Assembly (NCBI RefSeq): GCF_057098645.1
Contig: NZ_CM169472.1
DNA length: 64,000 bases
Reading direction: 5' to 3' (one strand)
The notes under the pieces are model-generated. The model was not told the DNA's origin. It saw only the letters and a list, made by a program, of their open reading frames with translations, and made no database searches. Below are positions 31,744-60,766 of this stretch, piece after piece; the stretch's first letter is position 1, and every line of letters starts with the position of its first letter. A program made the translations under genes and the position numbers.

Positions 31744-32883
31744 TTACCAGTTATGAATGTCGCTGGCTGTATCCGTCATGTAACGGACACCGCTAATAGT
31801 TGGCAGCAACTGATTGATCAGACGGTTCCAGCGGGAAACCGGGGCGGTGGTGACATACACCACGTCATAAGGTTGCAGGCGGAATTCTGTCGCCATCACC
31901 AGCGACGTCGCATCGGACATATCCAGCTGGTAGATATTGGCAATCTTGCCATTACGCCCGCCCTCGCCTTTCAGCGGACGAATGACAAAGATGCCGCTGG
32001 CGTTGGAGGTGGTCATGTCGATGCCTTCAGCATTACCCAGGGCTTCAGTCAGGGTCATGCCGCTAAAGTCCATTTTCAGGGTGCTCTGTTTCTTCACTTC
32101 ACCCATCACAAATACTTTCAGATCATCATTACGCGGCACGTAGAGAATATCGCCGGGATAAAGCAGTCGGTTCTGATTGAGGTCGCCGTTTTGCATCAGC
32201 GCCTGCAAAGAAATGCGTTCTTCACGACCATTGTGTGTTAGCACCACGTTGCGCCAGTCAGCGGTGTCGGTCAGGCCACCTGCGGCGTTGATGGCGTCGA
32301 GAATAGTCAGTGGTACGTTGGTGATCGCCTGTTGACCGGATTTATTCACCTGACCTGAGATATAGGCCTTTTGTGAGCGGAAGGCGGCGATATTAACGTC
32401 CACCTGCGGGTCAGCGATGTACGTCGCTAAGCGCCCGGTAATATCACTGCGGATTTCAGCGAGCGTTTTCCCGACTACGTGAACCTTGCCGATATACGGG
32501 TAGAACATGGTGCCGTCAGGCTGTACCCAGTTGCCGGTGTCACTGGAGCTGCGGTACTGACCGGCTGGCGTGGTGAGTTCCGGGTGATCCCAGACGGTGA
32601 CATTAAGAACGTCCCCCGGCCCGACGCGATACTGGTAATTCGCGATCTCGCTTTCCAGCGTCATATTGGGGCGCGCTACGTTGGGTCGTGGACGTAATTG
32701 GTCAATCAGGCGCGGGGTCAACGGATAAACATTCACCATTTTGTCGAGATCGAAATCAGCGTCCTGCTGTTTGATGACGTCTTTGCCCATCGTCGACATA
32801 TTGCTGCCCGGAAGTACTGTGCAACCGCTTATCAAGGTTACTGACACCAATAATGGCATCAATTTCATTTTGGATTTCATCAT
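31744..32883 (-). CDS. wza: Outer-membrane polysaccharide export lipoprotein Wza
   Basis: 379 aa; lipoprotein signal (LISGC); conserved first gene of colanic-acid operon. Confidence 0.93.
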
Positions 32884-33051
32884 TGTTTATTTATCACTTT
32901 GGCAGAGTAATTATCCTGTGCACTATTAATAGCAATGTCGCCATGCACATTTACCTTGCAGTTAATTGAATACAAATTTAACTGGCATCAGTCCTAAAAA
33001 AATTGATTTCATCCGCAGGCTATTGACAGAATAATTCAGACTGGTCTTTCA

Positions 33052-33090
33052 GGCATCCAGACACGCTACCGCCCCTGGCTTTTTAGCTAC
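33052..33090 (-). promoter_or_regulatory. JUMPstart element with ops (GGCGGTAGCGTG on minus strand at 33062-33073) upstream of wza
   Basis: Exact ops 12-mer; about 180 bp upstream of the wza start. Confidence 0.85.
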
Positions 33091-33541
33091 CAATACACTG
33101 ATTTAGCTTAATTTTTCAAACCCTCTCTGCATACAATCGTTGATGAGAAAGGGTTATTGCGGAAATTAACTTCCGAATATAAGGTGACATTATGGTAATT
33201 GAATATTGGCTCTCCAATAATGCAGGAGGAAGTGTTACAGCTAACGGAATAGCAGGCAAGGTAACAATTCGGCAATTGGCTATTTTTAAGAATTATATTA
33301 AGTGTCATTCAATATGGTTTTTAGGAGTTTCTTTAGGTTGACAATATTTAATATTGCGTCTCCACATGCGATATTTCTTAAATAATGTTTTATTATTACC
33401 ACTTTTAATTCAGGGATAATGTGAGGTTATTACCCTCAAATAATATGAGATAAATAGTGCTGCAACATTGCATTTTTGCCCCGATTTATCCATGATCGAA
33501 TTGTGACATTTGTCATACAACGAATAGGTTTTGTACTTACT

Positions 33542-35125
33542 ATGGAATGGATTGCCGATCCGTCTATCTGGGCCGGGTTAATCACGCTGATTGTGATCGA
33601 ACTGGTCCTCGGCATTGATAACCTGGTCTTTATTGCCATCCTCGCCGAAAAACTACCGCCGAAGCAGCGCGACCGCGCACGGGTTACCGGGCTGCTGCTG
33701 GCGATGTTAATGCGCCTGTTACTGCTGGCGTCAATCTCCTGGCTGGTCACCCTGACTCAACCGCTGTTCAGCTTCCGCTCGTTTACCTTTAGCGCCCGCG
33801 ACTTAATCATGCTGTTTGGTGGTTTCTTCCTGTTGTTCAAAGCCACGATGGAGCTGAACGAACGGCTGGAAGGGAAAGACAGCAATAATCCCACACAACG
33901 CAAAGGTGCGAAGTTCTGGGGCGTGGTGACGCAAATTGTGGTACTGGACGCCATTTTCTCACTCGACTCAGTGATTACCGCCGTCGGGATGGTCGACCAT
34001 TTACTGGTCATGATGGCCGCCGTGGTTATCGCTATCAGCCTGATGTTGATGGCCAGCAAGCCGTTAACGCAATTTGTTAACAGTCACCCGACGATCGTTA
34101 TTCTCTGCTTAAGCTTCCTGTTGATGATTGGCTTTAGCCTGGTGGCAGAAGGTTTCGGCTTCGTCATTCCGAAAGGCTACCTGTACGCTGCCATTGGTTT
34201 CTCGGTGATGATCGAGGCGCTCAATCAGTTGGCTATCTTTAACCGGCGACGTTTTCTTTCCGCTAACCAGACGCTGCGCCAGCGGACTACCGAAGCGGTA
34301 ATGCGCCTGCTTAGCGGGCAAAAAGAAGATGCGGAACTGGACGCCGAAACCGCGTCCATGCTGGTGGATCATGGTAACCAGCAGATCTTTAATCCGCAGG
34401 AACGGCGGATGATTGAGCGGGTACTAAATCTTAACCAGCGTACCGTCAGCAGCATTATGACGTCGCGCCACGATATTGAGCATATCGATCTCAACGCGCC
34501 GGAAGACGAGATCCGCCAGTTGCTGGAGCGAAATCAGCATACGCGGCTGGTGGTTACCGACGGTGATGACGCAGAAGATTTGCTCGGTGTTGTTCACGTT
34601 ATCGACCTGCTACAACAGTCTCTGCGCGGCGAACCGCTCAACCTGCGGGTGTTGATTCGCCAGCCGCTGGTGTTCCCGGAAACCTTGCCGTTGTTACCTG
34701 CCCTGGAGCAGTTCCGTAATGCCCGCACGCACTTTGCTTTTGTGGTGGATGAGTTTGGCTCGGTGGAAGGGATTGTGACATTAAGTGACGTCACTGAAAC
34801 CATTGCCGGTAACTTACCGAACGAAGTGGAAGAGATCGACGCCCGCCATGATATTCAGAAGAATGCGGACGGTTCCTGGACGGCGAATGGTCATATGCCG
34901 CTGGAGGATCTGGTGCAATATGTGCCGCTGCCGCTGGATGAAAAACGTGAATATCACACCATTGCCGGGCTGTTGATGGAGTATTTGCAGCGTATTCCAA
35001 AACCTGGCGAAGAAGTTCAGGTGGGGGATTATTTGCTTAAAACGTTGCAGGTAGAAAGCCATCGCGTGCAGAAGGTGCAGATTATACCGCTGCGTAAGGA
35101 TGGCGAGATGGAGTACGAGGTGTGA
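33542..35125 (+). CDS. yegH: Inner-membrane protein YegH (TerC-like membrane domain plus CBS pair plus CorC/HlyC C-terminal domain)
   Basis: 527 aa from ATG 33542; track ORF begins 22 codons upstream. Confidence 0.85.
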
Positions 35126-60433: not shown

Positions 60434-60766
60434 ATGGCTGGTTGGTTTGAACTCAGTAAGAGCAGTGATAATCAGTTCCGGTTTGTGCTAAAAGCGGGCA
60501 ATGGTGAGACTATCCTCACCAGCGAGCTTTATACCTCAAAAGCCTCTGCGGAAAAGGGCATCGCGTCGGTGCGTAGCAACAGCCCGCAAGAAGAACGCTA
60601 TGAGAAAAAAACGGCAAGTAACGGCAAATTCTATTTCAATCTGAAAGCCGCTAATCATCAAATTATCGGCTCCAGCCAGATGTACGCCACCGCGCAATCT
60701 CGTGAAACCGGAATTGCCTCCGTTAAAGCCAATGGCACAAGCCAGACGGTGAAAGACAATACGTAA
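60434..60766 (+). CDS. yegP: UPF0339 (DUF1508) tandem-repeat protein YegP
   Basis: 110 aa from ATG 60434 (MAGWFELSK...) with AAGGAG RBS; two internal about 50-aa repeats. Confidence 0.85.
   Translation: MAGWFELSKSSDNQFRFVLKAGNGETILTSELYTSKASAEKGIASVRSNSPQEERYEKKTASNGKFYFNLKAANHQIIGSSQMYATAQSRETGIASVKANGTSQTVKDNT

Follow-up and report, generated by a model that had tools for sequence, protein, structure and literature searches.

The wza–yegH intergenic region of Escherichia coli

The window, i.e. the whole 64,000-nt stretch of DNA that was analysed, stems from E. coli. It contains the first gene of the colanic-acid (cps/wca) operon, wza, and its divergently oriented neighbour yegH, which encodes a membrane protein of the TerC family (Table 1). 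From the wza end to the annotated yegH ATG at 33542, the spacer between the two genes measures 658 bp (32884..33541). A preliminary description of this DNA had put its length at approximately 590 bp and its end at 33475; the latter position is an upstream in-frame TTG of the maximal open reading frame and not the annotated start codon. A query of 659 bases, consisting of the spacer and the first base of yegH (32884..33542), was 100% identical to the sequence of E. coli O145 strain RM9872 and was found in 4818 of 5426 complete E. coli genomes. Alignment with the corresponding spacer of K-12 MG1655 revealed 12 substitutions but no insertions or deletions; the elements termed A, B and C below, the two promoter hexamers and JUMPstart are all free of substitutions. 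Because no indels separate the two spacers, K-12 coordinates are obtained by adding 2104360 to the window coordinates. In the K-12 RefSeq record, no regulatory features are annotated at the wza–yegH locus.

The control region of the colanic-acid operon is already known and belongs to a textbook system. According to the literature, an RcsAB box is present in the cps promoter upstream of wza, and the general scheme of Rcs activation combined with RfaH acting at ops has been stated. The wza promoter serves as a standard read-out of Rcs envelope stress; mucoidy, biofilm maturation and desiccation resistance are under its control. The window agrees with the view of the preliminary description that the colanic-acid promoter, together with a long leader and JUMPstart/ops, is located in a divergent wza–yegH region.

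Table 1. Genes and sequence elements at the wza–yegH locus (window coordinates).
Feature	Position	Strand	Basis and remarks
wza, coding sequence, gene 1 of the colanic-acid operon	31744..32883	-	ORF list; PGAP in the identical record; K-12 b2062
wza 5' leader, approximately 340 nt	32884..33223	-	5' end predicted from the promoter
JUMPstart, 39 nt with hairpin	33062..33100	-	Rfam RF01707, full-length, 57.3 bits (gathering score 35), E 2.5e-12
ops GGCGGTAG	33066..33073	-	within JUMPstart
PGAP 'hypothetical protein' ORF, 49 aa, WP_162829205.1	33192..33341	+	annotated in the identical record; overlaps B, C and promoter
Putative core promoter	33231..33259	-	-35 TTGCCT (33254..33259), 17-nt spacer, extended -10 TGTAACACT (33231..33239)
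Element C CTTAATATAATTCTTAAAA	33284..33302	-	highest conservation of the upstream blocks; contains the candidate 14-mer 33287..33300
Element B TGTCAACCTAAAGAAACTCCTAAAA	33320..33344	-	14-mer TAAAGAAACTCCTA at 33322..33335 (K-12 2137682..2137695)
Element A TAAGAAATATCGCA	33367..33380	-	best canonical RcsAB/RcsB-type box; K-12 2137727..2137740
Element D CACTATTTATCTCA	33446..33459	-	E. coli copy degenerate, right half only, matrix score below 0 bits
yegH, TerC-family membrane protein, divergent neighbour	33542..35125	+	ORF list; PGAP in the identical record; K-12

Phylogenetic footprint, promoter and leader

Scanning with YegH yielded 80 loci from different species, and in 67 of these wza is located divergently from yegH. 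Together with the window, these loci provided 68 orthologous spacers with lengths of 475–935 bp, and conservation was calculated over the 57 sequences that do not belong to Escherichia. Homologue lists obtained with Wza and RcsA comprised mostly close relatives. A metagenome scan using the 14-mer of Salmonella rcsA resulted in 120 loci, none of which encodes RcsA. The resulting phylogenetic footprint displays, in the direction toward wza, the elements D, A, B and C, followed by a promoter block, JUMPstart and conserved leader blocks extending to the start codon. Hardly any variation is seen among the 68 spacers in C, B, the promoter block and JUMPstart, and the spacings between them are fixed.

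The promoter block has the consensus CCTTGCCTG..TTAGCTG(C/T)AACA(A/C)TTC in the orthologous regions and a majority conservation of 0.915. Judged from its sequence, this block would represent a weak sigma-70 promoter with an extended -10 element, which reads TGCAACAAT in most other genera, and the hexamers given in Table 1 are to be taken as a predicted assignment. Transcription would then start near 33223 (K-12 2137583), 7–8 nt past the extended -10. A consensus promoter scan did not detect a strong promoter at the conserved block; its only match, at 33216..33189, is not conserved, and the conserved weak promoter was missed. Relative to the predicted start, C would be centered at about -70, B at about -105 and A at about -150.

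JUMPstart is present as described before, its position differing by 10 bp from the previously given 33052..33090. It is located on the sense (non-template) strand of wza, 179 nt upstream of the wza ATG (33062 vs 32883) and downstream of the conserved promoter, within the leader of a long polysaccharide operon as delimited by the predicted transcript 5' end. Among the orthologues it is near-invariant (majority conservation of 0.86 over the 57 non-Escherichia sequences). With regard to the full-length match, the hairpin, the ops sequence and the placement in such a leader, it corresponds to the JUMPstart/ops–RfaH leaders described earlier (Hobbs & Reeves 1994; Rfam RF01707) and shows nothing unusual.

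The leader further contains highly conserved non-coding blocks at 33034..32980 and 32925..32884 on the - strand. Its predicted RNA fold was not exceptional (z = -1.13), and an alignment-based fold of the leader displayed no covariation. In the latter fold, ops (GGCGG(U)AG) was paired with CUCUGCC located just 5' of the wza ribosome-binding site; as both sides are invariant, this pairing receives no support from covariation. Downstream of JUMPstart the leader is non-coding, yet its conservation is nearly coding-like. The sequence TGTCAATA occurs in the leader at about 33027 and also in element B. An IS1 insertion between JUMPstart and wza has been reported for a colanic-acid-overproducing strain (PMC8117528).

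A conserved element tied to the wza promoter

The preliminary description had drawn attention to an AT-rich stretch in the spacer and, within it, to the string ttaagaattatattaagt as a loose match to the RcsAB box. The string was found on the + strand at 33286..33303, and the stretch is indeed AT-rich, the GC content being 19% at 33280..33310 compared to 35% in the whole spacer and 50% in the window. The corresponding 14-mer, TAAGAATTATATTA at 33287..33300 (K-12 2137647..2137660), is part of element C. Across the 57 non-Escherichia orthologues, C has a majority conservation of 0.956, the highest value among the upstream blocks, compared to 0.69 for the whole spacer, and it is present in all 68 orthologues with no more than two mismatches. 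The distance between C and the promoter block is 41–42 bp in all 62 of the 68 regions in which the block was matched; that between C and yegH varies from 161 to 423 bp. Since the spacing to the promoter is fixed while the distance to yegH varies, C can be assigned to the wza promoter. By these measures of sequence conservation, the stretch singled out earlier is a real cis-acting element linked to the wza promoter.

In most genera, C reads CTTAATATTA(A/T)TCTTAAAA, and the Escherichia version is that of Table 1; within it, TTAATATTAATC is found in most genera and TTAATATAATTC in Escherichia. Read on the - strand, C is TAAT AT(A/T)A (A/T)TCTTA followed by AAAA. One of its halves, TCTTA (the complement of TAAGA), represents a good RcsB-type half-site. 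The other, TAATA, lacks the G read by RcsB, and this deviating half is itself invariant across the orthologues. Convincing further copies of a C-type motif were not found in the 64-kb window.

The 49-aa ORF overlapping C probably does not represent a gene. In only 22 of the 68 orthologues is C spanned by an ORF of 40 aa or more, with erratic lengths, and the annotated ORF has been ruled out as the source of the conservation of C.

A sequence overlapping C on the - strand, TGAATG-ACACTT-AATATA at 33296..33313, agrees at 11 of 12 positions with TGAATT-n6-AATATA, the binding site of the Rac prophage protein YdaT at rcsA (PMC11879457). The TGAATG part of this sequence is specific to Escherichia.

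Canonical and non-canonical box candidates upstream of wza

The operator termed RcsAB box was reportedly defined as TaAGaatatTCctA by Wehland and Bernhard in 2000. This wording of the consensus is confirmed in PMC4325325. According to structural work, RcsB reads G4 or its partner C11. Whichever strand is read, element C agrees with 10 of the 14 consensus positions and has five of the six core bases; of the five best-conserved bases (T1, A3, G4, T10, C11), one is missing: the + strand reading has A instead of C11, and the - strand reading has T instead of G4. Three matches of at least 10/14 occur in the spacer, i.e. C in both orientations and B. In simulated sequences of the same composition as the spacer, such matches occurred 1.4 times on average, and three or more were obtained with P = 0.19; the resemblance of C to the consensus, taken alone, is therefore not above chance. 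The three best consensus-matching sites coincide with the conserved blocks C, B and A, and an equally conserved triple of random windows was obtained with P = 0.038.

A position weight matrix was constructed from 24 independent boxes, comprising the promoter and 5'UTR rows of Table 2 in PMC7913699 and the galF box of Klebsiella pneumoniae; most of these training boxes had been selected by pattern, and fixed positions of the matrix are thus partly circular. The training boxes scored at least 10.5 bits, and the minimum in leave-one-out analysis was 6.4 bits. With this matrix, the top score in the spacer was that of element A (10.8 bits), which ranked third in the 64-kb window. No sequence of the spacer except A matches the invariant core T.AG.....TC..A; A agrees with TaAGaatatTCctA at nine of 14 positions, yet possesses all six of the capital-letter bases. 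Element C ranked second in the spacer with 7.8 bits on the - strand and reached 5.2 bits on the + strand, the orientation in which it had originally been written. C is thus borderline, below the lowest training score and above the leave-one-out minimum. B scored 3.0 bits. The idea that the AT-rich candidate provides the best RcsAB match did not hold up in the matrix scan, as it remained below threshold in both orientations and was surpassed by A, 80 bases further upstream at 33367..33380. The candidate stands as a conserved, promoter-tied control element; as a canonical RcsAB box it is not supported, given its missing core base and its matrix score.

Element A is retained as TAGGA(A/T)ATATCGCA in 47 of the 68 orthologues at a fixed distance of 76–79 bp from C, and the strict pattern failed in the other 21. 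Its majority conservation over the 57 non-Escherichia sequences is 0.77, below that of C. Element B has the consensus TGTCAA(C/T)AT…AA(A/T)TCCTAAAA across the orthologues and a majority conservation of 0.90; the distance to C amounts to 40–42 bp in 67 regions and to 38 bp in the remaining one. In its right half, AAACTCCTA, all nine bases agree with the RcsB box of Salmonella yciG, TAAGAAAACTCCTA, with the left half being off register.

Similarity to other Rcs-regulated promoters

Like the described RcsAB boxes and RcsB homodimer boxes, TN(G/A)GAN4TC(T/C)NA, the elements at wza are located upstream of an Rcs-activated exopolysaccharide promoter. The RcsAB box is a 14-bp pseudo-palindromic AT-rich sequence; such a sequence likewise occurs at wza, where no core base deviates in element A. 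The agreement of C is limited to a single half-site (TAAGA / TCTTA), which precedes an A-tract in the manner of the rcsA, yjbE and osmC-type boxes. In contrast to these systems, the G4/C11 base is absent from one half of both C and B, the score of C falls short of those of validated or training sites, and wza is preceded by three or four box-like elements in a fixed array instead of a single box.

The best local alignment between the upstream regions of wza and K-12 rcsA falls on C (TATTGAATGACACTTAATATAATTC vs TAGTGAATTGCCATTAATATAATTC), with 20 of 25 positions identical and P = 0.03 by shuffling. Its partner in the rcsA region is box1, which is bound by RcsA/B and overlaps TGAATTGCCATTAATATA (PMC11879457). 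This region shares TTAATATAATTC with wza element C, the borders of box1 being approximate here. The rcsA box2, TAAGGATTATCCGA, and wza element A have 10 of 14 bases in common, and at the rcsA promoter the boxes are also located far upstream, at roughly -140 to -170. The arrangement differs: at rcsA, box1 precedes box2 by 33 bp, whereas at wza, C follows A at a distance of 80 bp. In the rcsA upstream region of Sodalis, the canonical box TAAGAGTTGTCCGAAAAAAAA is kept, and no clear box1-type sequence was seen there. The upstream region of K-12 yjbE, another Rcs-regulated gene, contains TGAGGTTAATCCTAAAATAG and ATTATCCTAAAACG, whose right half TC(C/T)TAAAA also occurs in B and C. According to the literature, little is known about the roles of box1 and box2 in RcsAB binding regions. 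Judged by these similarities, C is most likely not a canonical RcsAB box but an Rcs site of the rcsA box1 kind, auxiliary or non-canonical in nature.

In K. pneumoniae, galF takes the position next to yegH that is occupied by wza in E. coli, and the validated RcsAB box of galF P1, TAAGATTATTCTCA, is located in the yegH–galF spacer, likewise divergent from yegH (ATCC 13883, locus L066, 2409..2422, - strand, galF strand). In contrast to the E. coli spacer, that of K. pneumoniae is GC-rich, and the two cannot be aligned; mapping of the wza box by homology to the validated galF box failed for this reason. Full-text literature searches with the candidate strings returned nothing relevant, and reviews and related papers give the consensus only.

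Putative mechanism and alternative explanations

We regard it as reasonably probable that C is a real and presumably Rcs-related auxiliary element, that A is the canonical box, and that both are part of an Rcs-activated, RfaH-dependent control region. A rigidly spaced upstream module, consisting of A, B and C, would precede the weak sigma-70 promoter. Phosphorylated RcsB together with RcsA would bind to this module, with A as the best full site and C and B each contributing one good half-site composed of TC(C/T)TA and an A-tract, and would recruit RNA polymerase to the weak promoter. The transcript would carry the leader of approximately 340 nt, in which ops inside JUMPstart would load RfaH, enabling transcription through the roughly 20 genes of the operon. 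The assignment of proteins to the single elements, and of the published box to one of them, is our reading of the sequence. The lower conservation of A compared to C (0.77 vs 0.95) speaks against this reading, and the published box could be C or B.

In a rival reading, the 14-mer at 33287..33300 would itself be the published RcsAB box that functions at the wza promoter. C is one of the three joint-top raw consensus matches and the most conserved upstream block, locked at 41–42 bp from the promoter. In most other genera, it reads TAAGA(A/T)TAATATTA on the + strand, with a perfect left half TAAGA, and it is similar to the galF box of K. pneumoniae as well as to the box1 region of rcsA. On the other hand, one of the five most conserved bases is missing in either orientation, and this deviation is conserved; C scores below the lowest training score of an independent matrix, while the full core and the top score are found at A. 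We consider this identification unlikely.

Alternatively, C might be the site of a protein other than RcsA or RcsB, either a DNA-bending architectural or nucleoid protein acting between A and the promoter or an unknown regulator. Such a site would account for the invariance of both halves of C, including the half that is unfit for RcsB, and for the palindrome TTAATATTAA inside C in most genera. In addition, A at about -150 is presumably too distant for simple contact with the promoter, and a bend would help; the aligned rcsA region has also been reported to be bound by H-NS and the prophage protein YdaT (PMC11879457). However, inspection by eye revealed no good match to an IHF or H-NS core in C, nor did B, C or the promoter block compare well with IHF, H-NS or sigma-54 motifs in such an inspection. 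The palindrome is broken in E. coli (TTAATATAAT), where the half TCTTAAAA is kept, and the TC(C/T)TAAAA half recurs in the yjbE and rcsA upstream regions. A different protein at C seems quite improbable to us.

A chance resemblance in AT-rich DNA without function, or conservation arising from the 49-aa ORF annotated by PGAP, would fit the non-significant consensus match taken alone, but is highly improbable given that the ORF is not maintained, and chance is essentially excluded by the conservation of C, with a majority conservation of 0.95 in more than 50 species at a fixed distance from the promoter.

Returning to C as an auxiliary Rcs element next to a canonical box at A, we tentatively propose a more specific form, which we consider possible but less likely than not. 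The Rcs input at wza would be a rigid array conserved in the family, with a canonical box at about -150 and two non-canonical elements, both invariant, located near -105 and -70. Both of the latter would combine a TC(C/T)TAAAA half with a conserved partner half that is not of the RcsB type and may be read by RcsA, and this design would recur at the rcsA promoter. If C and B are indeed contacts of RcsA/RcsB, they would help to define recognition by the RcsA half of the heterodimer. The general picture of wza control is unchanged by the present results, which provide corrected coordinates for the spacer, JUMPstart and ops and a best canonical box at 33367..33380. A possibly under-described aspect is that the strongest upstream constraint falls on the non-canonical elements C and B in a rigid array with A.

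Elements on the yegH side and elsewhere in the window

At the position aligned with element D, Enterobacter, Lelliottia, Trabulsiella and other genera possess a perfect RcsB-type palindrome, TGAGATTTCTCTTA or TGAGATTTATCTCA, approximately 170 bp upstream of C (seen, e.g., in loci L019, L021, L024 and L047). This pattern suggests Rcs control of yegH, or a far-upstream site for wza, in the genera carrying the palindrome, which would have decayed in Escherichia. D adjoins a conserved putative yegH promoter on the + strand, consisting of TTGCAT (33467..33472), a 17-nt spacer and CATGAT (33490..33495).

A conserved inverted repeat, TGTGACATTTGTCATA, is located at 33502..33517 on the + strand, 25 bp before the yegH ATG, and reads TGTGACAATTGTCATA in most orthologues. 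It matches nine of ten positions of the CRP core TGTGA-N6-TCACA. The repeat could be an operator or a hairpin in the 5'UTR; a role as a classical activating site seems unlikely because it appears to be too close to the yegH start codon.

The top match to the RcsB matrix in the whole window, TGAGACTATCCTCA with 15.0 bits, was found at 60505..60518 on the + strand, within the 3' end of baeR and approximately 250 bp upstream of yegP.
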